From Candidatus Saccharimonadota bacterium (GTDB taxonomy: Bacteria > Patescibacteriota > Gracilibacteria > BD1-5 > UBA2023), in assembly GCA_046350815.1 (NCBI GenBank), contig JAXLZO010000001.1, forward strand, positions 210,001 to 242,000: a DNA stretch of 32,000 nucleotides, given 5' to 3'. This document shows positions 1 to 32,000 of this stretch, in pieces. A model generated the notes under the pieces. The model saw only the letters and a program-made list of their open reading frames with translations, was not told the origin of the DNA and did no database searches. The position numbers and the translations under genes were made by a program. The first letter of the stretch is position 1; each line of letters opens with the position of its first letter.

Positions 1-19
1 GGAGCTACAAAATATAGCC

Positions 20-904
20 ATGAACTTTAAAAAGCAGCTCGTCAAAGAGGGAAAAAGCATACGAATCATCAATAAAAACAATTCTCCAATATCTCCAGCA
101 CTTGCGAAAAAGGAGCGCATCGGAATAAAAGCATTTGAGTGGCACATTATCGATCGAGGAAATGACGAATGTATCATCGCCGAAACAATTGCCTTTCAAG
201 ACATAGACAGTTATAGTGACCGTGATATGGGAAAAAGTCGAGATATGCAAGTTGGTATGCTTCCCCCAAAACTCTCACAAATACTCCTCAATCTCGCTGA
301 ACTCAAACCCCATCAGGCATTCTACGATCCATTCTGTGGTCTTGGAACCCTTCCAATAGAAGCTCTTCGTTATGAAGACATACTTATTATCGGATCTGAT
401 ATAGAAGAAAATCTTGTTACAAAGACACAATCCAACCTGGAACAAATGCAAGATCATCACAATCCACATCATATTGAGACATTCACGCGCAATGCTCTAC
501 AGCCATCACATCACCTTAGTGAAATTCGAAAACGCTATCCAAATCGATCCTTGACTATTGCTACAGAGTGATATCTTGGTCCTATTATTCGAAAATACAG
601 CAATTATCGTGCGATCGAAGAAGCTCTCGATGAGACAACTCCCATTACCCATGGATTCATCAAACAACTTGCAAAAGATCTACAAAAATGAGAGCGAGCC
701 TGTATTTGTATGCCTTGTTGGTTTTACAGTGAAAAATACACCTATATTCCACAAATAGTATCACTTCTGAGCGCATCTTGATTTGCTATTGAACGCATCG
801 AGCATCCACTCTTAGATCGTTCGTATACAGCACGATGATCTCTTATCTACCGTCGTTCAACACAAAACGTCGGACGAGAAATCTTTATACTTGTGAAGTC
901 ATAA
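20..904 (+). CDS. SAM-dependent RNA methyltransferase (UPF0020/Trm11-like class I MTase)
   Basis: ATG at 20. Track ORF 20..571 continues in frame through 4 in-frame TGA codons (first at 569-571) to TAA 902-904 (294 aa). SAM-binding-like motif DPFCGLGTLPIEA. Catalytic-like IATE-G(TGA)-YLGP. A hairpin terminator follows. Confidence 0.75.
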
Positions 905-910
905 TAAAAA

Positions 911-931
911 GCGTGATTTCTCACGCTTTTT
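911..931. terminator. Bidirectional rho-independent terminator between convergent genes
   Basis: GCGTGA (911-916), loop TTTC, TCACGC (921-926). Flanked by an A-run upstream and a T-run downstream, between the stops at 904 (+) and 944 (-). Confidence 0.7.
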
Positions 932-943
932 ATTATGACTGAA

Positions 944-1318
944 TTATTTCTTCATAATCTTTGCCCAGATTCCACCAAGCAATGATTTCGGTTCTTTTGT
1001 TGCCTTTTCATCGAGAGTTTTTTGTACATCATGCATCTTATCCATCGCAACCTCTTGAAGCTCTTCTGCCTTGTCTTTTGCTTCCTCAAGCACATCTTTA
1101 CTGATCTTTTGAGCCTTTTCAAAAAGTAATTCTGCCGGGGTTTTCGAGTGATCCTCTTTCTTTTCCTCAGCGACTACCTCAGATGTTTTTGGAGCATCTT
1201 CTGAGGGAGTTTCTGTGACTACCTCAGCAACAACTAGAGTTTCAGGAGCATTCGTTTCTGTTGAAGCAACTACGGTTTCTTCTTTTTTCGTAGCTTTTGG
1301 TTCTTTTGCAGCAGGCAT
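944..1318 (-). CDS. Hypothetical Lys/Glu-rich protein (disordered N-terminal half, helical C-terminal half)
   Basis: Track ORF 944..1366. I prefer the internal ATG at 1316-1318 (MPAAKEPKATKK...), because the upstream part overlaps the rsmI 3' region. I recognise no conserved motif. Confidence 0.5.
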   Translation of the reverse strand: MPAAKEPKATKKEETVVASTETNAPETLVVAEVVTETPSEDAPKTSEVVAEEKKEDHSKTPAELLFEKAQKISKDVLEEAKDKAEELQEVAMDKMHDVQKTLDEKATKEPKSLLGGIWAKIMKK

Positions 1319-1384
1319 AACAAAATGAAAAATAATAAAAGATGCTTTGATACTAGTCATTCTCACGAAAAATGCAAGAGTGAG

Positions 1385-2038
1385 CTACCACATTACGACA
1401 AATTCTCACTTTGGCGGATGATTTTGAAAATGTTTTCTCATATCAGCTACACTCATTCGGAGAAATTCTTCGAATTTTTTTGTAAGTTCACGACCAATAA
1501 CTATTGGCGTATCTCCCCCAAAATATTCCTCGATGTCTTCAAGTGTTCGATCAATACGATGTACTGACTCATATATAGCAACGGTATAATCCTTTGTTTT
1601 AAGGCTTGTCAGAAGGGTATGGCGTCACTTTTTAATAGGTATAAATCCGAGAAAACGAAAATCATGCATATGAAGACCGCTCGCACAAAGTGCCGTGATA
1701 ACAGCTGATGGTCCAGGAATTGGTGAAATATCGACTCATGCCTCGATAGCACGACCAAGGAGAGTGTAGAGCGGATCGGATATACCAGGCGTTCCAGCAT
1801 CACTGATAATAGCCAGATGTTCTCCAGCAAGAAGCCTGGATATGATTACTTCAATCTTCGCGGGTGAGGAATGAGCATGAAAAGACACAAGCGGACGTTT
1901 GATGTCGTAATGATTGAGAAGATTGCTCGACGTTCGTGTATCTTCGCAGAGTATAGCATCCGCCTCAGAGAGTATTCGTACTGCTCGATAGGTTATATCT
2001 TCAAGATTTCCAATAGGTGTTGCAACGATGGAGAGCAT
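1385..2038 (-). CDS. rsmI: 16S rRNA (cytidine1402-2'-O)-methyltransferase RsmI
   Basis: N-terminus MLSIVATPIGNLEDITYRAVRIL..LCEDTR is typical of RsmI. Fragment 1736..2038 reads on through TGA codons (1736-1738 and two more) to TAG 1385-1387. The C-terminal ...HPPK-G(TGA)-EFVVMW matches the RsmI KGEFV motif. 217 aa. Confidence 0.9.
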
Positions 2039-2044
2039 AATATT

Positions 2045-3496
2045 CTAGAGTCAAAGTTTATCCCGGATAACATTAACCTCATAGTGCAAATTCTGATCTT
2101 TCTTGAGCATAGTCTCAAGCTTTTTACAAGAATAAAGAACCGCTGAGTGATTGCGTCCACCAAAAATATTGCCAATTCTCTCAAGTGTATAGTGCATACG
2201 ATTTTTGAGGAGGTACATAGCAATCTGACGAGGAATCATATACTGCTTCTGACGATTTTGACCGATAAGATGTTTTGCTTCGAGTCAAAAATGTTTTGCA
2301 ACATGATCAAGAAGATCCTCGTAGCTACGCACTTTACTCACCGGTTCAACAAGAGTTGATCCGAGGCGAACTTGTGTTACAGAATGACGATTAAGAAGCT
2401 TTGCAACATTATCAAGAGTTGGTGGTACAGCAGTGAGTTCATATTGAGCAACAATTTGATTGAGAATCCCTTCAAGTTCACGTATGTTCTCTCCTGCATG
2501 AAATGCTATGTATTCAAGTACTTCTTTTTCCACACGAAATCCACGCTCAGAAATTTTACCTTGAATAATAGCAAGCTTTGTCTCATAATCAGGGATCGCA
2601 ACATCAACAATAATTCCACTCTCAAAACGACTCTTGAGTCGAGGTTCGAGCTCCTCAAGCTCTCGTGGTGCACGATCCCCAGAGAGAACTATTTGCTTCT
2701 TTGCATCGTAGAGAATATTGAAGATATTGTAGAGTTCTTCTTGTGTTTGTGTTTTTCGAGCGAGAAACTGTATGTCATCAATAATAAGAACGTCGATGCT
2801 TGCATATCGATCTCTGAGATTATCAGTATTTCGACGCTTGACACTATCAACGTAATCAGAGAGGAATTTATCAGCTGTTGTGTAGACAACGTGTTTATCA
2901 GGAAATCGATTTTTTGTCGCATTTCCAATGGCCTGTAAGAGATGGGTCTTGCCAAGTCCTACTCCACCATAGATAAAAAGTGGGTTATAAGACTGACCTG
3001 GTCGTCGACTCACAGCATCTGCAGCAGCAAATGCAAGCTGATTCGATGGACCTACGACATAGTTCTCGAGCTGATAGCGTGGATTGAGTGTTCGTCTTGA
3101 GATATTTTCCGCTTCATTTGGGGAAATTTCCTTGATTGCCGGAGTTGAGAATGATTTATCACTTGGTGCTCAAACCTCTGAAGAGATATTCTCTCAATCT
3201 GAACTCATCTTGTCATCAAGATATACCAGCAAATCATAGAGCTCACCATCATCAACCACAAAACTCACCTCACTCTGAGAGCATCCAAGATCCAGAAGAG
3301 CATCAACAATGGCGAGAGAAAATTTTTTATTGAGTGCTTTTGCGGCAAAACTCGAACCAACCCCAAAAACAATACTATTCTCCGATACAGAGACAAGAGA
3401 AATCTTCTTAAAATACGTCAGAATGTCTTGATGTCGCACATGACGAACCAAACATTCAACAAAGTCAGGGAGCGATTGAGGAAAAGAAAACAACAT
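2045..3496 (-). CDS. dnaA: Chromosomal replication initiator DnaA
   Basis: Track fragments 3194..3496 (domain I), 2285..3013 (AAA+ domain: NPLFIYGGVGLGKTHL, LIIDDIQFL) and 2051..2239 (domain IV: MIPRQIAMYL..GGRNHSAV) share one frame. They are joined by TGA at 3194, 3170, 2285 and 2051. Stop is TAG 2045-2047. 483 aa. Confidence 0.95.
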
Positions 3497-3507
3497 ATTG
3501 AGCTACA

Positions 3508-3535
3508 CTTGTATTGTTTTTTTTAACTTTGTCAA
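3508..3535 (-). promoter_or_regulatory. Putative sigma70-type promoter of dnaA
   Basis: On the minus strand: TTGACA (3530-3535), a 16-nt spacer, then TACAAG (3508-3513). This lies about 12 nt upstream of the dnaA ATG (3494-3496), so the leader would be very short and has no Shine-Dalgarno sequence. Confidence 0.35.
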
Positions 3536-3639
3536 AAAGTCGGTATTTTTTTAGAGAAAATTTTTTATAAAATTCAATAAAGTTCATCAAACAACATATA
3601 CAAAAATTTGTCATCCTGAAATTGATTCAGGATCCTCCT

Positions 3640-4012
3640 ATTTTATGATGAAGATTCCCGTCTACACGGGAATGACATTATTGAAAGTGAGGTTATGTAT
3701 TCCAATGGAAGAGATTCTTCTCGACAAGAGCCATGATACATACATCCACCCCGCCCTTCAGGCATCCATCAAGAGGGTAAGGGTTCAAAATTTTCCCATT
3801 TCCGCTCATTAATAGACTTAGGGAAAGTTCTATTCTTTTTTTATTTATTATCCTCGCAAAGTCAGGGATCTCGTATTTCCTGCATTTGTGATTTCGAACG
3901 ATAGAGAGAAATCTTTTTGACTGAAAATTCAGTGAGAATTTCCTGTACAAGAGATCTCTCATAAATTCGAGATGACAAAACAAAACACAAACCCCATTTA
4001 TTATGGGAGAAA
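3640..4012 (-). other. Unassigned transcription unit: either a small basic Cys-containing ORF (3693..4031 in the track) or a structured ncRNA
   Basis: It is bounded upstream by the pilin terminator (4013-4044). Downstream lie two hairpins: ATTCCCGT/ACGGGAAT at 3653-3672 and ATCCTGAA/TTCAGGAT at 3612-3637, the latter followed by a T-run on the minus strand. It contains a locally GC-rich patch (3745-3785). I recognise no family. Confidence 0.3.
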
Positions 4013-4044
4013 AATCAAAAATTCCTCTCAATAGAGAGAGGAAT
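4013..4044 (-). terminator. Rho-independent terminator after the pilin gene
   Basis: 9-bp stem ATTCCTCTC (4021-4029) / GAGAGGAAT (4036-4044), followed by a T-run on the minus strand. It lies 23 nt downstream of the stop at 4067. Confidence 0.7.
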
Positions 4045-4066
4045 CACGAACTAAGCAGAAAATAAA

Positions 4067-4528
4067 CTATGAATACACCCAAGGAGCAACAAGATACAGT
4101 ATCGCCGATACAAAGAAGAGAAGTATGAGTCCAGCGATCGAACTCACAATGAATTTCTTTGCCTTTACTTTTCCTTCATCCGTCGCGCCACCGATCGAGT
4201 ACATAATACCTCATACCGCAAGCATCAGAACTCAACAAAGCGTTGCGATGAAGACAACATACTGAATCATGGTAGAAATAACCGACTTGATGGCAGAACT
4301 AGCCTCAGGAACGGTACAATCAAATTTACGTGTTTCTACGTTTTTGTTTTTAGCTTCATCAACTGCTTTGCAATCAGCTCAAGGAATAGCTTCTGTAGTA
4401 AACACATGTGCTCAACTACTTGTTGGATCTGATGCAAAGCCAACTTCTAGACCAGCAAAAATTCCAAAAGAAATAAATATAGCTAGTATACCCACTTTTG
4501 TAAAATTTCGGAAGAAAAATAATTTCAT
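4067..4528 (-). CDS. T4SS-type pilin (TrbC/VirB2-like, CPR 'T4SS_pilin' type), Sec signal peptide
   Basis: Hand-translated minus frame from ATG 4526-4528 to TAG 4067-4069, with 4 in-frame TGA. It is absent from the track, which shows only the antisense ORF 4269..4535. Sequence MKLFFFRNFTKVGILAIFISFGIFAGLEVGFA|SD... then ...LMLAVGGIMYSIGGATDEGKVKAKKFIVSSIAGLILLFF..VAPW, giving a TM - G.(D/N)E..KAK - TM pattern. 153 aa. Confidence 0.75.
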
Positions 4529-4548
4529 ACAATAATAATTTTCTGAGA

Positions 4549-5526
4549 CTAGATTGGTGTTGTAATCTTAAACACACTCAGATCAGCAAGAAGACTATAC
4601 ACTCCAAAGAAGAGGAATAAACCTATAGTTGCATACAGAAATACAGACTTTGCCTTCTTGACCGTCTCTTCATTCCCAAGAGAGAATATATAGAGATATG
4701 ATGCATAGAGGTAAAATGCAATTACGAGTGGTACAATAAGATATGCTGCCATACCAAATGCTGTACCGAGAGCATTTTGTATCGTATCGCCAGTAAAATC
4801 ACCAATCGATACGATACGAATATACGCCTGAGTAAACCCAAGAAGTATAAGACCAAGTGTTCCATAAACAAGCTTATTTTTTGCTTCAACACGACGATCT
4901 TCATTATTGCCAGATCTCAAGTAAAGAAAAGCCGCATAAGTAAACATAAGCATTGCGAAGCCACCAATAAATACCGTGAGAAATCAAGAAAGATTGTTTC
5001 CGATCGTCTGCTCAAATCCTGACTTACCCACAATACAGTTATTTGCAAATCCAACATCGGTATATTTTGCCGTGTCACTCGTGACTGAATCACAACGTTC
5101 CGATGTGAACATACGAAGTATTTCTCCAGGAACCGTGAAAAAGACAAATGCAAGAAAAGCATGAACAAGTTGCATTTTTCCCTTTTTGAGAGCCTCTTCA
5201 TCACCCTGTGAGAATACAAGTTGTGCACCGGCAATCACGATAAAAAGCATCGCAATGATGGATACTATGATTTTCACAATTTTAAGAACTGCAAGAAATG
5301 TATTCTTGGATTTATCTTCAAAATTGTCACCAGACACTTTCTTACCAATTGCTTCAGGAGATACACCTCATACATCAAATCCTGGAATTTGTGTAACACG
5401 TAGATTCTCAGCAGAGACACTCGATAGAACCAAATTACTCGCAGTATTTGATAATATACCCACAGACCCAAGTGGGGTAAAAAAGAGAATTCCGAGAAGC
5501 GTAGTAATGAGAAATCGAGTAATCAT
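4549..5526 (-). CDS. Membrane protein with three tandem T4SS-pilin-like repeats
   Basis: Track fragments 4549..4953 and 4984..5337 share a frame and are joined by TGA 4984-4986. The ORF extends upstream through TGA 5368-5370 to ATG 5524-5526. N-terminal signal/TM sequence MITRFLITTLLGILFF. Three repeats of hydrophobic helix - (S/G).G(D/N)(E)E...K(K/A)(G/A)K - hydrophobic helix. 325 aa. Confidence 0.8.
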
Positions 5527-5546
5527 ACAAGAAAAGAAACGTGAAA

Positions 5547-6590
5547 TTAGCTACGATGAGGAAGATACTCCCGAGCAGATGCTTCATCGATAAGACCAGC
5601 ATCCAAGAGCGAATAAATATGTGATTTGAATGAAATCATTCCATCTTTCGCAGCTACTTCAATAGCATTATCAATTTGAATAAAATCACCGATCGTTATG
5701 AGATTACGGATGGCATTATTCACGTACATGAGCTCAAAGAGTGCAATACGATTATTTCATTGTTTGTTGAGTACCAGTCTCTGAGAAAGTACGCCAAGCA
5801 ACGCATCTGAGAGACGAACTCGAGTTTGTTCCTGCGCATCAGATGGAAAGAATTGTATAAGGCGGTTGAGGCTCGCTACCGATCCGGAAGTATGAAGAGT
5901 TGTGAAAACAAGGTGACCAGTCTCAGAGAGACTCATAGCAGCCTCTACTGTCTCTTTATCACGCATCTCACCCACGATAACAATATCTGGATCCTCGCGC
6001 ATAGCAGCACGAATAGCAGAGACAAAAGACGGCGTATCACGACCAAGCTCTCTTTGAGTAATAAATGATTGTTTATTAGTGAACCGGAACTCGATAGGAT
6101 CTTCGATTGATATGATATGCTCTTTGCGAGTTGCATTGATCTCATCAACAATAGCAGTAAGTGTAGTGGATTTACCAGAACCAGTCGGACCCGCAACAAT
6201 AAACATACCCTGCTTAGCTGTCAATAATTTATTTGCACCGATGGGAAGACCGATTTCTTTCATAGAAGGGGCTGTTGTATTGATACGTCTGAGTGCTATT
6301 GCACGTCGAGAAAGCGATCGATATGCATTAACTCGAAGACCGATACCAATATCAGACCAATAAGAAAAATCAAGCTCTTGAGCATTCTGAAGTGCAATAT
6401 TGGAAGACGCATCAGGATAGAGTGTATAAAACATTTCCTCAACGATTTCTTTCGTAAGAGGAATGTTGTCTGAAATTGGATCAAGACGACCATTCACGCG
6501 AATCATAGGAAGCTCTCCGACTACAAAATGAAGATCAGATCATTTTGTTTGCTGTAGGAGTGTGAGATATTGATTGAGAAGAGCTGACAT
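5547..6590 (-). CDS. pilT: PilT-type (type IV pilus retraction family) hexameric ATPase
   Basis: Fragments 5757..6506 and 5547..5729 share a frame and are joined by TGA 5757-5759. The N-terminus extends through one TGA to ATG 6588-6590: MSALLNQYLTLLQQTK-G-SDLHFVVGELPMIRVNGRL. Walker A GPTGSGKSTTL. IVGEMRD box. PilT-like C-terminus AIRNLI...DGMISF. 347 aa, stop TAA. Confidence 0.9.
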
Positions 6591-9185: not shown

Positions 9186-9749
9186 TTATTTTGCACGTTC
9201 TACATACTCTCCAGTCTCAGTGGAAACAACGATAGAGTCATCCTGTTCAACAAAACCTGGAACACGAAGCTCAAGACCTGTTTCAAGCTTAACAACCTTG
9301 TCTACTTTTCCATCAGCTGTATTTCCCTTTACTGCTGGCTCAGCCTCAACAATCTGAAGTGTAACTCGAGCAGGAAGAAGGATTCCGATAAATTTCCCCT
9401 CAAATTGTTGAATATCAACAATTTGCCCCTCTTTGAGATACTTAGTAGCATCACCAACATTCTCAGCAGAAAGCTCAAGTGTCTCGTACGTATCTTGAAG
9501 CATAAATGCATATGTTCCAACATTCTCATAGAGATATTCCGCTTTTGACCGATCAAGAACAACATCGTCAAGTTTTTCTTCGCTATCCATACTTCGGTCC
9601 ATGGTTGCACCTGACACGAGATTCTTCAGACGCATATTCACTGTTGTAGATCCACGTCCACCACGATGAAATTCATGTTTAATAACAAGAAGAAGATCGT
9701 TTCACATACGAAGTACTGTTCCAGTACGTGCTTCAAAAGCCGTTTTCAT
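9186..9749 (-). CDS. efp: Elongation factor P, Arg32 (EarP-type) subfamily
   Basis: Track ORF 9186..9641 extends in frame through one TGA to ATG 9747-9749: MKTAFEARTGTVLRM-G-NDLLLVIKHEFHRGGRGSTTVNMRLKNLVSG. The loop residue at position 32 is Arg (CGT, 9654-9656), aligning with SGR of Pseudomonas-type EF-P. 187 aa. Confidence 0.9.
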
Positions 9750-18513: not shown

Positions 18514-18526
18514 AAGTGAAGAATGA

Positions 18527-19472: not shown

Positions 19473-19486
19473 TAGTCAATTCTTTA

Positions 19487-19515: not shown

Positions 19516-19531
19516 TTTTTCTGTAAGGTTT

Positions 19532-20139: not shown

Positions 20140-20688
20140 TTATTTTTTTGGATAGAGGAGCACAGCGAAAGTATTACCAGTTTTGGTTATTGGCGCCTCA
20201 TCTGTTTTGTAAATATCAGAGAGAAATGCCACAAACTCACGTACTTTTCCAGAAGCGAGTTCTGCGAAATTATTTTCACGTCCACGCAGTTGCAAGACAA
20301 CCTTGATCGGATGAGCATCTTCTACGAACTTACGGATTTGATTCAAGCGAATATCTCGATCATGATCACCCATACGATAGGTAAGCTTGATGGTTTTTAC
20401 TTCAGCTTGCTTCGAGTTCACACGATTCACAGAAAGCTTTTTTTGCTCTCGGAATACGTATTTACCATAATCCATCATCTTTGTGATGACAACACCGTCA
20501 CGCTCACCCATTTCAACGATATCCATTCATTCTTCCTCAGCTCGAGCTATCGCTTCTGAGAGAGAGAGAAGTCCAAGGTTTTCACCTTCTTCTGTGACAA
20601 CTTGAACTCGAGATGCTATGATCTCATGGTTGATTCGTTTTGATTTAACGGGCTTTTTTTGTGGTTGAGGACTCGATCGTTTTCTCAT
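20140..20688 (-). CDS. infC: Translation initiation factor IF-3
   Basis: Track ORF 20140..20526 extends in frame through TGA to ATG 20686-20688: ...INHEIIASRVQVVTEEGENLGLLSLSEAIARAEEE-G-MDIVEMGERDGVVITKMMDYGKY. 182 aa, stop TAA. Confidence 0.9.
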
Positions 20689-21997: not shown

Positions 21998-22207
21998 GAA
22001 AATGAGAAATTGAGACAGTCAAAATATTGTCGAAGAAGTTTCTGTCAAACTTTGTTTGTATTGGGCGAAAATTGTACCATGAGAAAAGAAAAATATTTTA
22101 TTTTATCACAGAAATTATTTAAGAATTAATACTATTAATCGTCAATACATATTGTTGCAACGGCATAAAATATGTGAGAGAATGAAACAAGTAAATTCCC
22201 ACTATTT

Positions 22208-22327
22208 ATGAAACAAAAAATTCGAAAATATATATTCATTCCACTATTTCTGCTCTTGACTGGATCATGAGCCTTTGTGTTCACTGCAACATTTAATAAG
22301 ACTCTAGACAAGCAAACATTTGAATAA
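22208..22327 (+). CDS. Short ORF running into the IS left end (possible truncated gene remnant)
   Basis: ATG 22208. MKQKIRKYIFIPLFLLLTGS-G-AFVFTATFNK, then the sequence enters the IS inverted repeat at 22300 and stops at TAA 22325-22327 inside the element. Confidence 0.2.
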
Positions 22328-23065
22328 TTGAGCGTTTCGCTAATCTTCTGAGAAGGAGCCGTAAGGCTTCTTCTTTCTTATTGCGATAATTATACCGAAA
22401 CTCACATTCTTTCAAATGAAGATGGAATTTGTCTGCTCGGATTCAGTTTAATTTGATCATTCTTTGTTTTGCAAAACTCCAAAATGCCTCTATACCGTTT
22501 ACATGACTTTTTCATCTCGCAAACTTAACGAAGTGTATGCCTGTGGTGCATTGTGTGAATGAAACACTCTATAATGTTCGTATCCATTGAGTATAAGCCC
22601 ATCATAACTTGTCCAACCATCAGAGTTGACCGTGGATCATTCCAGAACTTTTCCTTGTATAGTATAGGCATTAATGAGTCTCTACTACAATCTGGAACAA
22701 TACTTACAGAGACATTTCAGTTTCTTTTCTGAAGTCCAAACACTGTGGTGTTTTTCCAGCCGCTCACCTTCATTGTTTTCCTCTGACTCGTCTTGCACCG
22801 AAGTAACTCTCATCAACTTCAAATTCTCAGAATTCTTTTCAAAACTTTGATGATTCTTCAATAGATATTCTCACAATTTCTTCTCGAAATATAGCATAGT
22901 ACCTGTTAATAGTGTTACGAGATATTTCGAGAAGTTCTGATGTTTGAGTAGCAGTAAAGTCTCCTAAAAATAGCTTCAAAATTTCTCGTATTTTCTCAGA
23001 GCTGATTTTACTGTATTTAATCATATGGAACTAGTGTAAGAAGATAATTCTTCTTGTCTAGAGCC
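22300..23065 (-). mobile_element. Decayed IS1595-family insertion sequence
   Basis: Imperfect terminal inverted repeats GACTCTAGACAAGCAA (22300-22315) and TCTTCTTGTCTAGAGCC (23049-23065). They resemble the IRs of the intact copy at 30180..30960. 766 bp. No target-site duplication is evident. Confidence 0.75.
22322..23024 (-). pseudogene. IS1595-family (ISXO2-like DDE) transposase pseudogene
   Basis: The N-terminus (track ORF 22839..23024, MIKYSKISSEKIREILKLF...) reads through TGA into EVDESYFGARRVRGK.GRGAAGKTP and then hits TAA at 22704-22706. Recognisable downstream segments lie in other frames: VFGLQKRNGNVSVSIVPDCSRDSLMPI, then IQGKVLE.STVNSDGWTSYDGLILNGYEHYRVFHS, then HVNGIEAFWSFAKQRM..HLHLKECEFRYN. 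This requires at least 3 frameshifts. Confidence 0.75.
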
Positions 23066-23076
23066 TTGTTTTTTCC

Positions 23077-24807
23077 CTAAAATCCACTTTGCAACTCAAG
23101 CATCCGAGCATAACGACTCTTCTTTTGGAGAAGAGTTTCATGATTCCCTCGCTCTTGAATCTCGCCGTTTTCAATATAGATAATCTCATCAGCTTCTTTT
23201 ACCGTCTGAAGCCTATGAGCAATGATGATAACCGTTCTTCACTCAAAAAGTTTATGGAGGGCATGCGATACTTGTTCCTCCGAGAAACTATCAAGTGCAG
23301 AGGTCGGTTCGTCAAGGAGTATAATTTCAGGATTCTTGAGAAATATTTTTGCAATAGCAAGACGTTGTTTTTGTCCACCAGAGAGTCTGACTCATTTTTC
23401 TCCAATCTCCGTATCAATTCCATCGGTAAAATCCAAGATAAAATCACATTGTGCAAGCTTAAGCGCACGTAGAAGATCTGATTCATATGTATCTTTTGAC
23501 AGACCAAGAAGAAGATTCTCACGAATCGTCGCATCGAATACGAGAGGATCTTGAGTTAAATATCATACATGAGAGAAATACGTCTTAAGTGCGATACTAC
23601 TAAGATCCTGATTATCAATAGCGATCATGCCATTTGTCGGAGAGAGAAATCACACTATCAGCTTCATGATCGTTGATTTTCCAGATCAAGATGGTCCGAT
23701 AAGAGCGGTTTTCTTGCCACCAGCAAACACAATATTCATATTCTTAATGGCAGCTTCCTCATTTTCGTGATATGCAAATCATACATTTTTGAGGCTTATT
23801 TCTCATTTTCCAAGTCTGAATTCATTTCCTTGTTCATATTGTGAAAAAGGTGCTAATCCATCAATAAGTTTCCATCACTGTTGCAATTGAATAAAATTGG
23901 AGAGAAATTCATTCATAAAATCCATGAGATCATGCATTCTTCCATGAAATCCTGCTAAAAATCCAAGTATTCAAAGTGTATATGGAAGAAGAGATGGATC
24001 TTTGATCGAGGCAGTACCCAGAATATAAGCAACGAGACTGTAGAATGCAACGAGTATTACCGTGAGGAAAGAATTACGAGATACCATGAGAAACGAATAT
24101 GGCTCAAATAACTCCGTGTGTTTTTGTGCAATATTCCTCTGACTGATCAGTGCTTCATCTTGTGTATTGCTTTGAAGTATTGCACTATAAGACATAAATA
24201 TTTTCGTAGCATTTCTATCCCATTCCTTAAATAAAGCGTGTATTTTTGATGTCCATTTTTTCCCTGATGTATGTGTCAAGATACTGAGAAGAAGAGTTGA
24301 TAGAAGAATGCTCATAATCGCAATAAGCAGCCAAAAGGATCAAATCTTAATACAAAAATACATGCCAATACCCATAGTAACCATAAACTGTATTCCTTGT
24401 ATAATTGCTCGAAGGGAAGTAGTAATCCAGAGGTTTGCATCACGGTGATAGATCGACATGAGTCGACCGGTACCATAGAATTCCACATCATGTGGATGAC
24501 TCCCGAGAACTTGTCTCAGAGTGGTATCGTCACGCACCAAAGTATCGAGACGATGCTTGACCGTCTGAAACATATATCGATGGCTCATGATCCGAATAAC
24601 AATGGAAATCAACATAAATACACTATATGCTACCAACGTATAGATCAGAAGGTGAGTATTGCTCTGTTGGAGAGCAAGTGTTACATACGTAAGCACAATA
24701 CTGACACTCACCATGGTGATGGAGATAAATGTTTCTCGAAGAGCAAAAAACACTATATCTTTCTTGGCAAGATTCATCCAAGAAAATAGTCGTACAAAAT
24801 CCTGCAT
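23077..24807 (-). CDS. ABC transporter, fused permease/ATPase (MsbA/MdlB-like type I exporter)
   Basis: Track ORFs 24340..24807 and 23971..24315 plus downstream pieces share one frame and are joined by many TGA. Walker A IGPS-G(TGA 23686-23688)-SGKST. Signature LSGGQKQR. Walker [12 protein letters not shown]. Stop TAG 23077-23079. 576 aa. Confidence 0.9.
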
Positions 24808-24854
24808 ATTTCGTGTTATGAAGATATTTCGAGCATATGAAAGAACTCAAAATA

Positions 24855-24886
24855 TCAAAAAAGAAAGAAGATATATCTTCTTTCTT
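24855..24886 (-). terminator. Putative terminator after the CYTH gene
   Basis: Perfect 13-bp palindrome arms AAGAAAGAAGATA/TATCTTCTTTCTT (24861-24886), followed on the minus strand by a T-run. The stem is AT-rich. Confidence 0.5.
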
Positions 24887-25401
24887 TAATTTGATTTGAT
24901 GAGTTTTGGATGATACACATCCCAGAGTTCATCACTCCCATATGCTACTGTATCTTTCATTTCATACCCGAGCAGTTTCACTCAGCGAACAACCGTTTCT
25001 TCAGATTGACCTTCCACTTCGATAAAAGTTGGTATATCTCACCAAGTGTCAATATCATAGTGAATATCCTCAAGTATATAAGATGTACGATGTTTGTGAA
25101 TTTCTTTGATCATCTTGAATCCAAGAAGATCTAGCATATGACAGAAGGTATCAAAATCGCCAATATACGTCTCGAGCTCAAGTGCATGTTTGATATCATG
25201 ATACACAAAGGCAGTCTTCTTGGTGATATATACCATATCACCCGCCTTTCGTATTCGGATTTTTCCACTGGAATTTGCATAATGTCTCGAATAGAGATCT
25301 CCCTCAAATACCTTAACAGCCCCATAGGTCTCAAGAGTTCGGACGAGAGATTCCTTGTTGATTTCAAGAATTTTTACCTCTAGTTCATTAATAGATGTCA
25401 T
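24886..25401 (-). CDS. CYTH-domain protein (CyaB/thiamine-triphosphatase-like triphosphate tunnel enzyme)
   Basis: Track ORF 25039..25401 reads through TGA 25039-25041 and one more TGA to TAA 24886-24888. N-terminal ExExK signature ELEVKILEI. Alternating beta-strand pattern. 171 aa. Confidence 0.7.
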
Positions 25402-25406
25402 AGATA

Positions 25407-25868
25407 TTAGCGAGGAATGATATTGTATCCTTGTGTTTTAGTGGAAAGGCGATCAAGCGATTGAAATACAAACTCTCACTGTTTGTGGGCCTCAACATAC
25501 ATATCTCTTGATCTCGATCGCTCCGCTACAGAGAGATACGCATAATATGTATTGAGCTCAGAGACGAGATAATGATATTCATTTGCGATATCTGTATATT
25601 CGTAGTTCGTCATATAGCCATCACGGTAGGCAGACTTGATATTCAGACGAATAGCATTGAGAGTTTTTTTCGAGCTATCATATGAGGACTGTGATGTCTC
25701 CCCATAAAATCTCACCTTCTCCAAACGATAGCCATCAAGATTTGAAAGTCTACTGCTCGTACTCATGATATTCTCACGAATTCATCCATATGCCAAGGCA
25801 GGAGAAGTAAAGGACAAACTTGATAACCCAACGAGAACCAATGAAATGAATGTGAGAATATTTTTCAT
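25407..25868 (-). CDS. Hypothetical secreted protein
   Basis: Track ORF 25476..25766 extends upstream through one TGA to ATG 25866-25868 (signal peptide MKNILTFISLVLVGLSSLSFTSPALA). It extends downstream through TGA 25476-25478 to TAA 25407-25409. 153 aa. It ends 5 nt before the CYTH start. Confidence 0.6.
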
Positions 25869-25911
25869 ATATATTTTTGTTAGTATTTACACACAATAGA
25901 TATATTTTATA

Positions 25912-25928
25912 TATTGTCAATAATATCG
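25912..25928 (-). promoter_or_regulatory. Putative promoter; copy 1 of a shared 17-mer containing a -35 TTGACA
   Basis: The minus strand reads CGATATTATTGACAATA, then a 16-nt spacer, then TATTGT, about 30 nt upstream of ATG 25868. The identical 17-mer recurs at 29026-29042. Confidence 0.45.
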
Positions 25929-25955
25929 ACACAAGAAATATACAAAATATATTTC

Positions 25956-25985
25956 TTAAAAAACGCAGCAAGCTGCGTTTTTCTT
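25956..25985 (-). terminator. Rho-independent terminator after the LysM-CHAP gene
   Basis: Stem AACGCAGC / GCTGCGTT (25962-25979) flanked by A- and T-runs. It lies immediately downstream of the stop at 25986-25988. Confidence 0.75.
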
Positions 25986-27113
25986 CTAATCCACATAGAT
26001 ATATCACTTAATAGCAGGATGATCCTTGGGGATTTCTCTGATGGTAACAGTGTTGAGTTTTTGGTAGTTCATGTCTTTGATGATGAGTTTGGTATCTTTG
26101 ATTCATACGACGATACCGACATGTCAGTAGTAAGGATTGTATCCATATCATTCGAATTGGATGATAGATCCCACTGCAGGGGTTTTACCAGTTGGTACTC
26201 ATTGTGCTTTTGCATTTCGTATCCATTGGTTTGCATTTCATCTCCAGGTGACTGTCTTGTTCTGTGCGACATAGGCGGTACAGTTTCACCAGGCAAATCA
26301 TCGGCTCAGTCCGGTATAGACTACCTTATAGGTTTTATCTCATTTCTTAGCAGCAGTGCTTGTCTCAAGAAGACTCTCGGATTTTTTTATCGGTGGTTTT
26401 TTATCGGCAACCTTTGGGGTTATTTTCTCGGGAACTTTGACTACTGGTTTTACAGGAGGTTTTTCAGCAACTTTCAGAGATTGACTTTTTTGTTGATTTT
26501 GTTTATTTTGAGCTATCAAACTGACTGGCTGACTCGCACCTGCAACAATAACCACTTCGCCAACTGGAAGCTCTCACTCAAGAAGTTTTCCATAATCAGA
26601 GAGAATGCGTGATGGTTCGACTCAGAATTTCGTCGCTATACTCTCGAGTGTATCTCCTGATTGAATCGTATACGCAGATCATGAAACCGGTGGAATTTTT
26701 ACCACTGTCCCAGCTTTGATTTGTATATCACGATCTTCAAAATTATTTGCCCAAAGAATCATTGATGTAGGCACACGAAAAACCTCAGCGATCTTCGTAG
26801 GGGTTGTATCACTTTGAGTTCTGTACACATGAAGCCTAGTGAGATTCGTTGTTGCATATTGACCGACACTCGGATCATTTGCACGAATATAACGATTTCA
26901 TCAGAGGCTATCTTCCTCAGGTGGAATATCTTCCGAATCATCAACACTATATTCGGACAAAGTTATAGATTCACTGTCTTCCTGTGCCTGAGCTGTACTT
27001 GTCAGAAGCAAGTAGTTACTAAATGTTGGATATACCGGAAGGAGAAAAATAACAAGAATACTAATAACATGATATTTTTTGAGAATTGCAAAAAATCACC
27101 CAATTTTTTGCAA
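25986..27113 (-). CDS. Secreted peptidoglycan hydrolase: LysM-LysM, Pro/Lys-rich linker, CHAP domain
   Basis: One minus frame stays open from 27206 to TAG 25986-25988 with many TGA. The track shows only 26340..26555 (GTG start). Two LysM-like repeats (YRTQSDTTPTKIAEVFRVPTSMILWANN..., YTIQSGDTLESIATKFGVEPSRILSDYG...). Linker KPPVKPVVKVPEKITPKVADKKPP. CHAP-like W-G-NCTAYVAQ ... GHVGIVVG. The start is uncertain: there is no in-frame ATG upstream of the TM segment, so TTG 27111-27113 or GTG 27174-27176. Confidence 0.75.
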
Positions 27114-27236
27114 AATTGAGGTGGCATTTCGACGACCTGCGGATGTTATGCAATACTTCCGTTTGGAACTATTCACGTAGAATTTTTGGATATAAAAGAA
27201 GTTGTTCTATCTCAAAGAAATGAGATTCAAACATCT

Positions 27237-27539
27237 TTATGCGATTGCTGTAACCTCAAGTGTGCTGAGGTGAGCTCGAAAACCTCGAGTTCGAGCATAA
27301 CGCTTCTTTGATTTCATTTTAAATACACGGAGCTTGTCCCCGAGAGTATGACTGAGTACCTTGAGTGAAACGATCTTTGCTGAAGATCCAACACTAAGTC
27401 CAGAACCATCTTCACCAGTTGTGAGGAGCGCTTGAACATTCATACTACCATCAATATCAGCTTGTTGGCGGTCTACAACGATCTTGTCTCCAACTTTTAC
27501 GGTATATTGCTTGCCTCCAATTTCAACGATTGCGAGCAT
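27237..27539 (-). CDS. rplU: 50S ribosomal protein L21
   Basis: Intact ORF. MLAIVEIGGKQYTVKVGDKIVVDR... is typical of L21. Confidence 0.93.
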   Translation of the reverse strand: MLAIVEIGGKQYTVKVGDKIVVDRQQADIDGSMNVQALLTTGEDGSGLSVGSSAKIVSLKVLSHTLGDKLRVFKMKSKKRYARTRGFRAHLSTLEVTAIA

Positions 27540-27620
27540 AAGAAAATTGTGAAAAATACAAATAACTGCGAGATTTTATCAAAAAACTCTATTTTGGCAA
27601 ATTTATATCACCTACTTATT

Positions 27621-28247
27621 CTAAAGATAAGCACTTAAGATGACTTGAATGTGCGAAAATACTTCATCTGGAGATCCGCTCGCGTTAATACGATATACTC
27701 TTTTTCCTTCGCTCGCCCACTCTGCAAGAAGTGGGAGCGTATTCTCATAAAAAGCTTCGATACGTATCTTTGCGGCTTCAGGAGTATCATCCTCTCTCTT
27801 GATCAACCTGTTTCCGGTAAATGGAGAATAATCTCATTCAAAATCTTTTGAAAAACTCATACCATTAATCGGATCAATACGACGATTGGAGAGACGATCT
27901 ATGGCGATATCTTGCTTAAGGTCAAGAAATACAACGAGATACTCTGGAAATATCGTATCAAATAATGCTTTCTGGGCAAAAGTTCGTGGAATTCCATCAA
28001 AGAGAATATGTCATCAAGTGTGCTCATTTTTATAATGTTGTAGCATTGCTCCAACAATTTCATCATCTATAAGTTTTCATGCTTTCATATCTCACTCCAG
28101 CTTTGCAGCCATCGGATGTCCAGTTTTTGCAAAGTTGCGTAATTTTTGCCCCATTTCAAAGAATACATAATTGGGATAGTTCTCACAAATAAGTCGTGCT
28201 TGCGTTCATTTTCAACTTCCTTGTATGCCAACAAGAACAATATGCAT
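27621..28247 (-). CDS. adk: Adenylate kinase
   Basis: ATG 28245-28247. P-loop MHIVLVGIQGS-G(TGA 28212-28214)-K-G(TGA 28206-28208)-TQ. ...ILFDGIPRT.... Track ORF 27621..27806 is only the C-terminus. 208 aa, stop TAG. Confidence 0.9.
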
Positions 28248-28269
28248 TGTAATATAAAAAGAATATTAA

Positions 28270-28623
28270 AGCTCTCTCGATAATAAGCCGGATTCTGTAT
28301 GTCTCTACACATCTCTCTAGGATGTCACTCACGCGACACCTCAAGCAGGGTATACATACTATCGAGTGCCCGAGCATATCTCTCAAGTAGTACCATTCCC
28401 TTTGCATCACATGGGGTTTGCCACCTCATAGAATATATGAGATCCTACTGAGTAGGACTTTTCACCTTTCTCCTGCCAAAAGCAAGATAGTATTGTCTCT
28501 GTGGCACTATCCGTAAATAGAGATTCAAATATACCTCTATCCCACAGCCGTTAACTGCCATGCTCTCGGGTGATGTCCAGACTTTCCTCATTCTTGCGAA
28601 CGCGTGTAGTTGTCGAGAGAGCT
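28270..28623 (-). ncRNA. rnpB: RNase P RNA (bacterial type)
   Basis: The minus strand contains GAGGAAAGTCTGGAC (plus 28575-28589; consensus GAGGAAAGUCCGGGC), AGTGCCACAGAGACAA, and ACAGAATCCGGCTTAT near the 3' end (consensus ACAGAACCCGGCUUA). A P1-like pairing joins GCTCTCTCGA (5' end, plus 28613-28622) to TCGAGAGAGC (3' end, plus 28271-28280). A TATACT -10-like box lies just upstream. Track ORFs here (28085..28696) are spurious. Confidence 0.88.
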
Positions 28624-28659
28624 TTGAGAGTATAGCGAAAGTTGGAAAAATCGGAAATA

Positions 28660-28682
28660 AGAAAAGCCCCAATATGGGGCGA
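28660..28682 (-). terminator. Rho-independent terminator upstream of rnpB
   Basis: Stem GCCCC (28666-28670) / GGGGC (28676-28680) with loop AATAT, followed by TTTT on the minus strand. It lies 18 nt downstream of the stop at 28700. Confidence 0.6.
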
Positions 28683-28699
28683 GGGGGATCGTGCAAGAA

Positions 28700-28972
28700 T
28701 TATTTTCCAGAAAAAATGACCCTAGCGATTTTATGAATCATACGCGAACGTTCCTCTTCAAAGAGAGTCAGAGAATCCTGGTATTTTTTACGCCAAATAT
28801 CCTCATAACAATGACGTTTGAAGCTCTCGAGAACCCACTTTGCACGCTCACGATCATTTTCAATGTGAGCATATTTATTTTCCGACTTCTTCACAAGCTC
28901 ATTACAATCCTTGCGGATATTGAGCCGAGTAGGAAGCTCAAGAAAGTAACGAATCATACTCATAATTGTCAT
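28700..28972 (-). CDS. Hypothetical 90-aa protein
   Basis: Intact ORF with a strong Shine-Dalgarno sequence (AAGGAG, 6 nt before ATG 28970-28972) and a putative promoter containing the shared 17-mer. Charged and helical-looking (…RERAKWVLESFKRHCYEDIWRKKYQD…). I recognise no family. Confidence 0.6.
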   Translation of the reverse strand: MTIMSMIRYFLELPTRLNIRKDCNELVKKSENKYAHIENDRERAKWVLESFKRHCYEDIWRKKYQDSLTLFEEERSRMIHKIARVIFSGK

Positions 28973-29025
28973 AACATTCTCCTTCTAAAAGCTATGAACA
29001 AGAAATATTAAATACAAATACATAT

Positions 29026-29042
29026 TATTGTCAATAATATCG
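29026..29042 (-). promoter_or_regulatory. Putative promoter; copy 2 of the shared 17-mer containing a -35 TTGACA
   Basis: The minus strand reads CGATATTATTGACAATA, then an 18-nt spacer to TAATAT, upstream of the SD and ATG at 28972. Confidence 0.45.
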
Positions 29043-29064
29043 CAGGAATAATGAACTCGGGAAT

Positions 29065-29093
29065 ACAAAAAATACTCAGTATCAGCTGAGTAT
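29065..29093 (-). terminator. Rho-independent terminator after recA
   Basis: Stem ATACTCAG (29072-29079) / CTGAGTAT (29086-29093) flanked by A6 and T6 runs. It lies 14 nt downstream of the recA stop. Confidence 0.8.
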
Positions 29094-29106
29094 TTTTTGT
29101 ATAGAG

Positions 29107-30102
29107 CTATTTTGCAAGAGCCTCTCGAATCTTTGCTTCGATTTCATTAGCAATAGCCGAATTGGTTCGAAGAAAATCTTTTGAATTCTCTCGACCCTGT
29201 CCGAGACGGGTCTCACCGTAGGAGTAAAATGCACCTGATTTCTTGATGATTTCTTTTTCCGCTCCGATATCGACTATTTCACCAACTTTCGAGATACCTT
29301 CATTAAACATGATATCCATCTCGATTTCTCTGAATGGTGGAGCAATTTTATTCTTCACTACTTTCACTCGAGTTCGATTTCCTGTTGCCTCTTTCTCTTC
29401 CCCAGAACCTGCTTCAAGTTTTTCTTTACGACGAACTTCAAGACGTTGCGAAGCATAGAATTTGAGAGCATTTCCACCGGTTGTTGTCTCAGGATTTCCA
29501 AATACGACTCCGATCTTCATACGGATCTGATTGATAAAGATAACGGTCGCGCTCGACTTGCTGATAACTCCCGTGATCTTTCTGAGTGCCTGTGACATAA
29601 GACGTGCCTGGAGACCCATGAACGAATCACCCATATTTCCCTCAATTTCTGCCTTTGGTACAAGCGCAGCAACTGAATCCACTACAATGAGATCAACTGC
29701 CCCGGATCGAACAAGAGCATCTACGATCTCAAGAGCTTGTTCTCCATAGTCCGGTTGAGAGACGATAAGAGAATCTACGTCGACTCCTATTTTGCGTGCA
29801 TATTCCGGATCGAGTGCATGTTCCGCATCGACGAAGGCACAGGTTCCACCAACCTTTTGTACCTCAGCAATAGCATGGAGGGTAAGTGTTGTCTTACCGG
29901 ACGATTCTGGTCCATAGATTTCGATGATTCTCCCCTTTGCATAACCGCCACCGAGAGCATGGTCAAGAGCGATCGATCCAGAAGAAGATGTCTCTACCTT
30001 AAGATGCGATTGCTCTCCGAGAGTCATAATAGACCCAGATCCAAATTGTTTTTCAATCTGTGCAAGGGCTGCTTTGAGAGCTTCTTTTTTGTTATCAGTC
30101 AT
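29107..30102 (-). CDS. recA: Recombinase RecA
   Basis: Intact 331-aa ORF with no TGA. ...[11 protein letters not shown]... Walker [11 protein letters not shown]. ...FVDAEHALD... Typical RecA throughout. Confidence 0.98.
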
Positions 30103-30179
30103 ACGAGAAAATATTTTGTTTAAAAGCGAATCTACTATAGAGAGATGATGGAGAAACTCAAATTTTTTATAAATAGCAA

Positions 30180-30960
30180 GGCTCTAGACCAGAAGATTTT
30201 AGAAATATCTAAGATCTTCTGGATTTTTTATAAAATATTTTAATCATTGTAATAAGTTCCTGCTCAAGTTCAAAGCTTTCTTTGGTATACATCCATTCAC
30301 ATTCTTTGAGATGAAGGTGAAAGTTTACTTTCACACCGTTGAACTTGTTCAATCGGCGCTTTGTGAAACTCCAGAAGTTCTCAATCCCGTTGATGTGAAT
30401 TCCATTCCCAAGTGAGAATTCACTTGTACCATGGTTGACTCGGAAGTGCTTGTCGATTCATACATCTACGAGATCATCGTATCCCTTCCAGCCATCTGAA
30501 TACAGGATAGAATCTTCTATGCTGACTTTTCCCTGTATTATAGGTCGGAGTGTTACAGCTTTGTAATTCGGAATAATCTCTGTATATATTTCTACTCTTC
30601 CATTCTCATCTTTTCTCTTGATGAGTCAAAACACTGGCTGTTTGAGGGTTCATCTTCATCGTTTGAGTTTTCCTGTAAGTCCTCTTTTTCTCTTTGCTCC
30701 AAAATAGCTTTCATCTACTTCAATTGCACCACCTATCTTTTCTTTGAAAGCTTCAATTCGATGAGTATAGATCACCTTCCTAAAGATAGAGAAATAATGG
30801 TTAACGGTCTTTCGATTATATCCCAAAAGCTCGCTTGTTTTTGTGGCATCAATATCCACACAAAAGCACTTAATAATCTTTTTAAGTTCGTGAACTGATA
30901 TTTTGCTGTATGGGATCATAAGAAGAGAGTATATGAGTTACTTTCTTCTGGTCTAGAGCC
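30180..30960 (-). mobile_element. Intact IS1595-family insertion sequence (781 bp)
   Basis: Perfect 17-bp terminal inverted repeats GGCTCTAGACCAGAAGA (30180-30196) and TCTTCTGGTCTAGAGCC (30944-30960) enclose one transposase gene. No 8-bp target-site duplication is evident. Confidence 0.85.
30209..30919 (-). CDS. IS1595-family (ISXO2-like DDE) transposase
   Basis: Track ORF 30656..30919 (MIPYSKISVHELKKIIKCF...EVDESYFGAKRKRG) reads through TGA-CGT-TGA (giving the R-G-R-G motif) and further TGA codons. ...KQPVFGLIKR..IIPNYKAVTLRPIIQGKV...YSDGWKGYDDLVDV-G-IDKHFRVNH..HINGIENFWSFTKRRLNKFNGV..LHLKECEW. Stop TAG 30209-30211. 236 aa. Confidence 0.88.
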
Positions 30961-31077
30961 TTTATATTTAGCCTAGAAAGATTCTACTCATTTCTCAACA
31001 CATTTTATAAACATGTGATTGTCAAAAGTATATAGCAATAATTTTTGCTCTTCGAGACCTACAAACCCGACATGAAA

Positions 31078-31299
31078 CTAACTTCCTTTCCTCTTCCTCT
31101 TATAAAACTCTTCCAGCGATGCTCTTGTCCCAATCGTGATATCAACTGATTCACATTTGGGACATTTTTTTACTTCTTCATTATACGGAGTGGTATGGAG
31201 ACATTCCCGACAATAGATAATCACTTCTCAGCGATCTTCTGCGAATGTTTGGCGTTGTTTGCCGAATGTTGCAACGTTAATGAGTTCTGAGTATTTCAT
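31078..31299 (-). CDS. Small zinc-ribbon protein (CxxC...CxxC)
   Basis: ATG 31297-31299, one TGA, TAG 31078-31080. MKYSELINVATFGKQRQTFAEDR-G-EVIIYCRECLHTTPYNEEVKKCPKCESVDITIG... 73 aa. It starts 10 nt after the smpB stop and is not in the track. Confidence 0.55.
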
Positions 31300-31309
31300 A
31301 GAGTGTCAT

Positions 31310-31813
31310 TTAGTAATGTTTCATAGCTACTTCTGCTTCTCTATTGAGTGTGCGCTCTTTAAGAAGTTGTTTTTTATTATAATCCTTTCGTCCTCGCACA
31401 AGTGCAACTTCCACCTTGAGAAGATTTCCTTTCAAATATATTTCTCTTGGGATCAAGGTGACTCAACCAGTCTTTATTTTCTCTGCAAATTTCAGAACAT
31501 CCTTTGATTTGAGAAGAAGGGTACGATCTCTGGTTGGATTTTGACCAAGTGTAATACCTCACTGTCTATAGGGAGTAATATGCCACCCGATGACTACAGG
31601 CAGGCCATTCTTGAGGCTGATATACGCACCTTTGAGATTGGTAGATTTTTCTCGCAGAGATTTCACTTCCCATCCATGAAGAATTACTCCCGCCTCAAGA
31701 GTCTCAATCGTTTCATAGTCAAAATTCGCCTTTTTATTGACGTGTATGCTCGTGCGTTGTTTCTGATGAATCATAATATGGAGTATAGCGATAGTGCGAG
31801 GTGAATCAACCAT
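31310..31813 (-). CDS. smpB: SsrA-binding protein SmpB
   Basis: Track ORF 31559..31813 reads through TGA 31559-31561 and one more TGA to TAA 31310-31312. ...HVNKKANFDYETIETLEAGVILHGWEVKSLR...ITPYRQ-G-...RDRTLLLKSKDV...LIPREIYLKGNLLKVEVALVRGRKDYNKK. An alternative start is ATG 31772-31774. Confidence 0.88.
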
Positions 31814-31844
31814 CTTTCGTCTTGGAGATCACTTTTTTGCTAAA

Positions 31845-32000
31845 TTAAGGTCTCTTCGAGAGAATCCAACCAAGCATCGATTCAGGGTTACCGATATATC
31901 GAGCTTCTATTCGAAGTTTTTCAAGAGAGAGTAGTATGATATTTCCTTGAGGATCAAGTTCAAGAAATTTTCGTATTTGCTCGGTACTTGTCCCCTTGGG
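31845..32000 (-). CDS. 3' end of an unidentified CDS (partial, continues beyond the window)
   Basis: The frame is open from the window edge to TAA 31845-31847 (...GTSTEQIRKFLELDPQGNIILLSLEKLRIEARYIGNPESMLGWILSKRP). I cannot identify it from 51 residues. Confidence 0.4.
   Translation of the reverse strand, partial: PKGTSTEQIRKFLELDPQGNIILLSLEKLRIEARYIGNPESMLGWILSKRP

Follow-up and report, generated by a model that had tools for sequence, protein, structure and literature searches.

In-frame UGA codons read as glycine in a 32-kb window of a Gracilibacteria genome

Translation of the 32,000-base stretch at positions 210,001 to 242,000 of contig JAXLZO010000001.1 (here called the window; G+C content, 38.7%) with the standard bacterial code, translation table 11, breaks most of its genes at in-frame TGA codons. 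This raises the question of what UGA means in the organism from which the DNA came. A preliminary description, prepared from the sequence alone, had proposed that UGA is a glycine codon here, as in translation table 25, and had placed the DNA in the lineages known to use that code. Both proposals held. The window almost certainly comes from a member of the Gracilibacteria (BD1-5; Candidate Phyla Radiation) with translation table 25 as its genetic code, a reading supported by four independent lines of evidence: codon exchange between orthologues, homologues of solved structure, profile scores and coverage, and matches to GenBank proteins.

TGA codons were counted in 27 supported genes (6,882 codons), a supported gene being one backed by Pfam, NCBIfam, PDB, or orthologues. 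As open reading frames bounded by TAA and TAG included many long shadow frames, frames were chosen by composition and then confirmed using these same sources. With TGA as a sense codon, ∼84% of the window is occupied by genes, including open reading frames without a family match and an RNase P RNA gene. The supported genes carried 91 in-frame TGAs (∼1.3% per codon), which interrupted 22 of the 27 (81%). The earlier statement that nearly every gene is fragmented was therefore true of most genes, but those for L19, L20, L21, S20, L35, and RecA contained no TGA. TGA made up 91 of the 461 glycine codons (∼20%), and its inclusion raised the glycine content from 5.4 to 6.7%. In a standard-code genome, no in-frame TGA is expected in working genes, and the pattern seen here is far beyond chance. 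The six motifs cited in the preliminary description, from adk, prfA, ksgA, hsp20, and the genes for an ABC exporter and a VirB4-like ATPase, all contained TGA in frame, at the positions given; the hsp20 codon, for which no coordinates had been given, lies at positions 15923 to 15925 of the plus strand.

The codons that replace TGA in orthologues provided a test independent of any translation table. The window was aligned by codon with two metagenome contigs, L083 (JGI; 86.6 kb) and L084 (ENA; 53.8 kb), across eight genes and 1,999 ungapped in-gene columns; the gene order recA-adk-rplU-CHAP-unknown gene-CYTH-ABC was common to all three. Three genome loci located via RecA (L003, L004, and L023) matched the window in gene order at recA only and therefore were unusable for codon comparison. 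TGA was present in 47 columns of the three-genome alignment, of which 21 were TGA throughout, 23 alternated only between TGA and GGN, and 3 held other codons. All four glycine codons (GGA, GGG, GGC, and GGT) were found as alternatives. When TGA was paired with a nonidentical codon, the partner encoded Gly 48 times, Glu twice, Ser and Asp once each, and Trp never, while Gly accounted for 2.9% of nonidentical partners overall. The gene for a LysM-CHAP hydrolase contributed 17 TGA columns, 10 invariably TGA and 7 with GGN as the sole alternative. Thus, TGA can be exchanged for GGN but not for TGG.

Protein alignments were examined for the residues that stand opposite TGA. For the ABC exporter (576 amino acids [aa]; positions 23077 to 24807, minus strand; 10 TGAs), 116 homologues carried G (102 sequences) or W (14 sequences) in the column of the Walker A codon at 23686 to 23688 (GPS-x-SGKST), and the tryptophans are most likely code-4 translations of TGA. 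G (or W) was near complete at four TGA columns in this set, and G and W together were commonest in two more. The set is circular, as many of its members are Gracilibacteria proteins to whose translation code 25 or code 4 had already been applied; comparisons with PDB entries and with raw codons were therefore taken as the noncircular tests. For the former, TGA was masked as X, and the residue of the best PDB match, from organisms that use the standard code, was read at each aligned X.

In Adk (208 aa; 27621 to 28247, minus strand; seven TGAs), the best match read G, G, A, G, K, N, and P. PDB adenylate kinases have G at residue 57 and at both P-loop TGA columns (28212 to 28214 and 28206 to 28208; GIQGS-x-K-x-TQ), and in the relatives these two P-loop codons are GGG and GGC. 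Release factor 1 (RF1), encoded by prfA (360 aa; 14572 to 15654, plus strand; three TGAs, including 14920 to 14922 in EIRA-x-AGGDEA), gave A, G, and G; across five PDB alignments, residue 117 was opposite G, G, G, A, and G, and residue 156 was opposite G in all five. KsgA (ksgA/rsmA, 276 aa; 17174 to 18004, plus strand; three TGAs) gave G, D, and S, and its S-adenosylmethionine-binding motif I (codon 17309 to 17311; EV-x-PGYG) corresponds to EIGPGIGALT in PDB KsgA, which places G at the TGA column. Both TGAs of SmpB (167 aa; 31310 to 31813, minus strand) were opposite G in the best PDB match. The VirB4-like ATPase (670 aa; 12409 to 14421, minus strand; seven TGAs) gave A, R, S, and G, with residue 641 aligned to G. 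RsmI (217 aa; 1385 to 2038, minus strand; three TGAs; Pfam TP_methylase, 1 to 210 of 212) gave H, D, and G; in E. coli RsmI, the first two of these columns are occupied by G, and the third is G in 3KWP. The IS200/IS605 TnpA (139 aa; 18094 to 18513, minus strand), which matches Pfam Y1_Tnp from 2 to 121 of 121 across all four of its TGAs, gave K, M, G, and S, with G opposite residue 77. Altogether, G was found at 11 of the 26 aligned positions in these seven proteins and W at none (P = 2e−6 against a background of 8%). Hsp20 (155 aa; 15665 to 16132, plus strand; Pfam HSP20; two TGAs) added a G at the codon in LTIS-x-ER, a column that reads G, G, and A in PDB small heat shock proteins. The ABC exporter, compared with ABCB1 structures, added I, G, D, G, R, G, G, and G (G at five of eight aligned TGA columns). 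With these two included, G occupied 17 of 35 positions and W none.

Family profiles were scored against the TGA-as-glycine products and, for table 11, against the longest TGA-free fragment of each gene, using the curated NCBIfam cutoffs. DnaA rose from 327.5 to 442.0 bits (cutoff, 343.9), RF1 from 315.9 to 471.6 bits (cutoff, 400), KsgA from 120.3 to 199.0 bits (cutoff, 171), and SmpB from 72.3 to 151.9 bits (cutoff, 130), so that all four passed their cutoffs only when read through. Adk rose from 33.3 to 124.4 bits, and its cutoff of 168 was not reached. In dnaA (483 aa; 2045 to 3496, minus strand), four TGAs at residues 101, 109, 404, and 482 leave TGA-free pieces of 100, 7, 294, 77, and 1 aa, of which the sizeable ones are the three fragments reported in the preliminary description. 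The read-through DnaA covered positions 8 to 437 of the 437 in the profile, compared with 91 to 341 for the longest table 11 piece, and the read-through SmpB covered 6 to 155 of 156. Full profile coverage was obtained with the read-through versions only.

The source of the DNA was identified from recA (331 aa; 29107 to 30102, minus strand), which has no TGA and served as a code-independent anchor for finding source and relatives, and from searches with the TGA-to-Gly translations. Seven of the latter were exact matches to GenBank proteins: RsmI (MFO0763441.1), DnaA (MFO0763442.1), EF-P (MFO0763450.1), RF1 (MFO0763454.1), KsgA (MFO0763458.1), the ABC exporter (MFO0763466.1, with G at every TGA), and Adk (MFO0763471). 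The entries from MFO0763441 to MFO0763471 belong to a Candidatus Gracilibacteria bacterium metagenome-assembled genome, in which they are located on one 1,283,673-bp contig. The nearest genome RecA was likewise from a Candidatus Gracilibacteria metagenome-assembled genome (78% identity), and together with the seven exact matches this places the window in the Gracilibacteria. A table 25 annotation of the window thus already exists in GenBank. The RecA product was also found exactly on two Logan contigs (7.2 and 4.3 kb), which are 100% identical to the window (23038 to 30208). Identical DNA is present in sequencing runs SRR26348422 and SRR26348423.

Several observations weigh against the table 25 reading. 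TGA stands opposite Glu, Asp, or Ser codons in three variable orthologue columns, which is as expected of ordinary amino acid replacement; in the other 23 of 26, it alternates with GGN only. For approximately half of the TGA sites, the alignment column is variable and uninformative on the amino acid. The Walker A TGA of the VirB4-like ATPase (13396 to 13398; AKSG-x-GKS) is opposite A in the best PDB match, the VirB4-like 4AG5 (E value, 1.9e−44; Pfam P-loop_TraG, AAA_10, and DUF87), and opposite S in TrwK. This TGA occupies the variable x of GxxGxGK[ST], where a small residue rather than an invariant Gly is found. The earlier claim that the TGAs lie on invariant glycines therefore failed for VirB4. 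At the RF1 and Hsp20 columns, most homologues have Gly and some have Ala. In dnaA and an EarP-like gene, a TGA lies within the last three codons, before a TAG, and a stop reading is possible there. Finally, ARAGORN identified no tRNA gene in the window and no tRNA with anticodon UCA in seven related loci, which yielded one tRNA-Gln only.

The last point bears on how UGA would be decoded. A tRNA-Gly with anticodon UCA is expected for this purpose, with the glycine identity elements G1:C72, C2:G71, G3:C70, and U73 (PMC8629427), and in the BD1-5 genomes then available prfB was absent and prfA present in all (PMC6851277). The release factor encoded in the window scored above the cutoff for prfA, as given above, and below that for prfB (274.8 bits; cutoff, 370), and in PDB searches it matched RF1 (E value, 1.2e−100) better than RF2 (1.3e−57). 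P-E-T and GGQ motifs are both present. A PxT-type motif in RF1 reads UAA and UAG. The preliminary observation that RF1 is the only release factor is correct for these 32 kb, which make up 2.5% of ∼1.28 Mb, and is uninformative on RF2 across the whole. In the window, UGA is an ordinary glycine codon equivalent to GGN, UAA and UAG are the sole stops, UGG alone encodes Trp, and CGA and CGG encode Arg. From published work on the lineage, UGA would be read by a dedicated tRNA-Gly(UCA), and RF2, which otherwise terminates at UGA, would have been lost. That decoding instead proceeds by other means, such as an unusual tRNA architecture, near-cognate reading, or context-dependent termination, appears improbable.

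The terminal TGAs could also be taken to mean that UGA has a dual role, encoding Gly inside genes and, in some contexts close to the end of a gene, terminating translation. The TGA of dnaA at residue 482 of 483 (2051 to 2053) comes directly after the last position of the DnaA profile, and that of the EarP-like gene is at residue 346 of 348 (9822 to 9824). At 1.3% per codon, approximately one terminal TGA is expected by chance in 27 genes, and two were observed. As had been claimed, every gene end is TAA (n = 15) or TAG (n = 12), and none of the supported genes requires TGA as a stop. Where last profile positions could be compared with gene ends, the two coincided, both for NCBIfam (SmpB, 155 of 156; KsgA, 255 of 256; DnaA, 437 of 437; RF1, 347 of 347) and for Pfam (IF3_C, 86 of 86; L21, 99 of 99), and TAA and TAG are therefore true stops. 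The GenBank models read through the TGAs of both dnaA and the EarP-like gene, and the published BD1-5 genomes lack prfB (PMC6851277). A dual meaning is considered very unlikely.

Translation table 4, in which UGA encodes Trp, is used by the Mycoplasmatales (Mycoplasma/Spiroplasma) and several insect endosymbionts. Read-through restores full-length genes under either code, and a search with the ABC protein identified three close relatives (P0002 to P0004; 76 to 81% identity) to which public pipelines had applied code 4, so that W stands opposite TGA of the window, as in GPSWSGKST. Contigs L083 and L084 were located through these homologues. The preliminary description had argued against code 4 from the continued use of TGG for Trp, an argument that does not hold given that code-4 bacteria keep TGG too. 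The case against code 4 holds on two other grounds, the lack of any exchange between TGA and TGG in orthologues and the presence of Gly at TGA columns: in the 1,999 codon columns, TGG was paired with TGG save in two cases, and no TGA-TGG pair was found, against 23 columns in which TGA exchanged with GGN. Opposite TGA, PDB homologues had no W in 35 positions, compared with 17 G. Reading TGA as G scored higher than reading it as W in all seven NCBIfam families (61.5 bits in total), including Adk (124.4 versus 104.4 bits), RsmI (218.9 versus 210.6 bits), and the IS200/IS605 TnpA (128 versus 118 bits), so that W cost Adk 20 bits. Trp in the P-loop of Adk or the ABC exporter would also be incompatible with the Walker A fold. 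The Trp reading, already refuted by the codon-exchange data, is highly improbable.

If the standard code applied, the TGAs would be real stops arising from pseudogenes, sequencing or assembly errors, or genome decay, and table 11 calls on the same DNA do give short open reading frames. However, this would break 22 of 27 genes, among them dnaA, prfA, adk, infC, efp, smpB, and ksgA. Similarity to homologues would also have to end at each TGA, and it runs on across every one, which refutes this reading. The 21 columns in which TGA is kept come from three independently assembled genomes, and the two Logan assemblies agree with the window at every base over 7.2 and 4.3 kb. This explanation is extremely improbable. 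UGA is also the bacterial selenocysteine codon, but a standard code with exceptions for selenocysteine or programmed read-through can be dismissed for practical purposes, as no selenoproteome comes within orders of magnitude of 91 sites in 22 genes, Cys was found at no TGA column among PDB homologues or orthologue codons, and an Rfam search of the window at the gathering threshold returned RNase P RNA only and no selenocysteine insertion sequence (SECIS) family.

With UGA read as glycine, the 27 supported genes were a partial methyltransferase gene, rsmI, dnaA, genes for two type IV secretion system (T4SS) pilins, a PilT-like ATPase, and the VirB4-like ATPase, ybaB, rplS, efp, an EarP-like gene, prfA, hsp20, ksgA, IS200 tnpA, an IS1595 transposase gene, rplT, rpmI, infC, rpsT, genes for the ABC exporter, a CYTH protein, and the LysM-CHAP hydrolase, rplU, adk, recA, and smpB. 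The infC gene (182 aa; 20140 to 20688, minus strand; one TGA) encodes both Pfam IF3_N and IF3_C, complete to the C terminus, and is the first gene of an infC-rpmI-rplT operon. Between infC and rplT lies rpmI (L35, 65 aa; 19924 to 20121, minus strand; no TGA), which completes this conserved operon and was absent from the list in the preliminary description. The densest use of TGA in the window was found in the gene for the LysM-CHAP cell wall hydrolase (∼376 aa, start codon uncertain; 25986 to 27116, minus strand; Pfam CHAP and LysM), in which 15 TGAs make up ∼4% of codons, three times the window average. In the spacer beside dnaA (3497 to 4066), no DnaA-box cluster was found.

T4SS/pilus-like components are located at 4067 to 6590 and at 12409 to 14421, both on the minus strand, and comprise two T4SS-pilin proteins, the PilT-like secretion ATPase (347 aa; 5547 to 6590, minus strand; two TGAs; Pfam T2SSE; E value, 1.4e−43), and the VirB4-like ATPase. 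They are separated by unannotated genes. The efp gene (187 aa; 9186 to 9749, minus strand; one TGA) encodes all three EF-P Pfam domains and adjoins the EarP-like gene (9813 to 10859, minus strand), which matches only the C-terminal third of the Pfam EarP profile (E value, 1.3e−10). EarP is the EF-P arginine rhamnosyltransferase. The EF-P loop reads HRGGRGS, presumably with Arg in place of Lys34 of E. coli, and the N terminus of the EarP-like protein (DNLGDM-x-F) appears to resemble the DNYGDIGV motif, both judged by eye. No paper connecting EarP with Patescibacteria was found in a literature search.

Two insertion sequence families are represented. The IS1595-family transposase (236 aa; 30209 to 30919, minus strand; Pfam DDE_Tnp_IS1595, 2 to 152 of 153), like the IS200/IS605 TnpA, is encoded with four in-frame TGAs, and both could therefore be expressed only in a host that reads UGA as sense. 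The other IS1595 copy (22293 to 23030, minus strand), a probable pseudogene, is divided among three reading frames. It lies within a region of ∼1 kb (21998 to 23076) without a confident gene; a similar region of ∼1 kb is found beside IS200 tnpA (18514 to 19531), where open reading frames had no significant family match. Downstream of the ABC gene, L083 (11740 to 21619) and L084 (11818 to 21761) carry genes for very large leucine-rich-repeat proteins of up to 1,673 aa. At this place, the window has the IS1595 remnant and a gene for a 306-aa protein without a family match, and the gene order breaks there.

A bacterial class A RNase P RNA gene was identified at 28268 to 28621 on the minus strand (Rfam RF00010; 176.6 bits; model positions 1 to 367, full length), flanked by adk and a small conserved open reading frame. 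This RNA gene accounts for a stretch in which conservation between the window and L083 and L084 exceeds 90% in all reading frames.

Any table 11 pipeline would break approximately four-fifths of the genes in the window, with the loss of essential ones, and a fallback to table 4 puts Trp into P-loops, as in the GPSWSGKST of public entries. For this lineage, public databases show errors of both kinds, and the correct code flag is therefore needed before further annotation of the window. In the table 11 calls on the Logan contigs, adk and the CHAP gene were not called and the CYTH gene was shortened; the 90% cluster of the ABC protein contains a 155-aa piece called on the 7.2-kb contig. Public table 11 fragments from relatives were found in the same 90% clusters as RF1 (200 aa), RsmI (100 aa), EF-P (134 to 149 aa), KsgA (130 aa), and Adk (155 to 177 aa). 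Some mistranslated public entries are labeled Candidatus Peregrinibacteria (e.g., MCA9377802.1). The value of the result is practical rather than conceptual, and it opens no new biological question. Recoding of UGA to Gly has been textbook knowledge since 2013 and is established in Gracilibacteria and Absconditabacteria (Campbell et al. 2013; Rinke et al. 2013; both cited in PMC8629427). It is also reported by Hanke et al. 2014 (PMC4032931), work that PMC6851277 presents as proteomic validation.

Compared with known systems, the window agrees with table 25 (Candidate Division SR1/Gracilibacteria) in the presence of UGA at conserved Gly columns and its exchange with GGN, in UAA and UAG as sole stops, UGG as Trp, and the presence of RF1, and in a low to moderate G+C content and a GenBank source of Candidatus Gracilibacteria; no difference was detected within the 32 kb. 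It resembles table 4 systems in having UGA as a sense codon, an AT-leaning small genome, and RF1 as the release factor seen, and differs from them in the amino acid, Gly rather than Trp. An extended code has been proposed using Codetta, in which UGA encodes Gly and CGA and CGG encode Trp in Absconditabacteria, with CGG as Trp in some Gracilibacteria (Shulgina and Eddy 2021, PMC8629427). This assignment of CGA and CGG was rejected for the window, where 104 CGA and 14 CGG codons are found at positions of conserved Arg (such as RF1 residues 128, 292, and 301 and the DGIPR motif of Adk); in orthologues, CGT, CGC, and AGA take their place but TGG never does. The window therefore shares UGA as Gly with the extended code of the Absconditabacteria and differs from it in retaining CGA and CGG as Arg.

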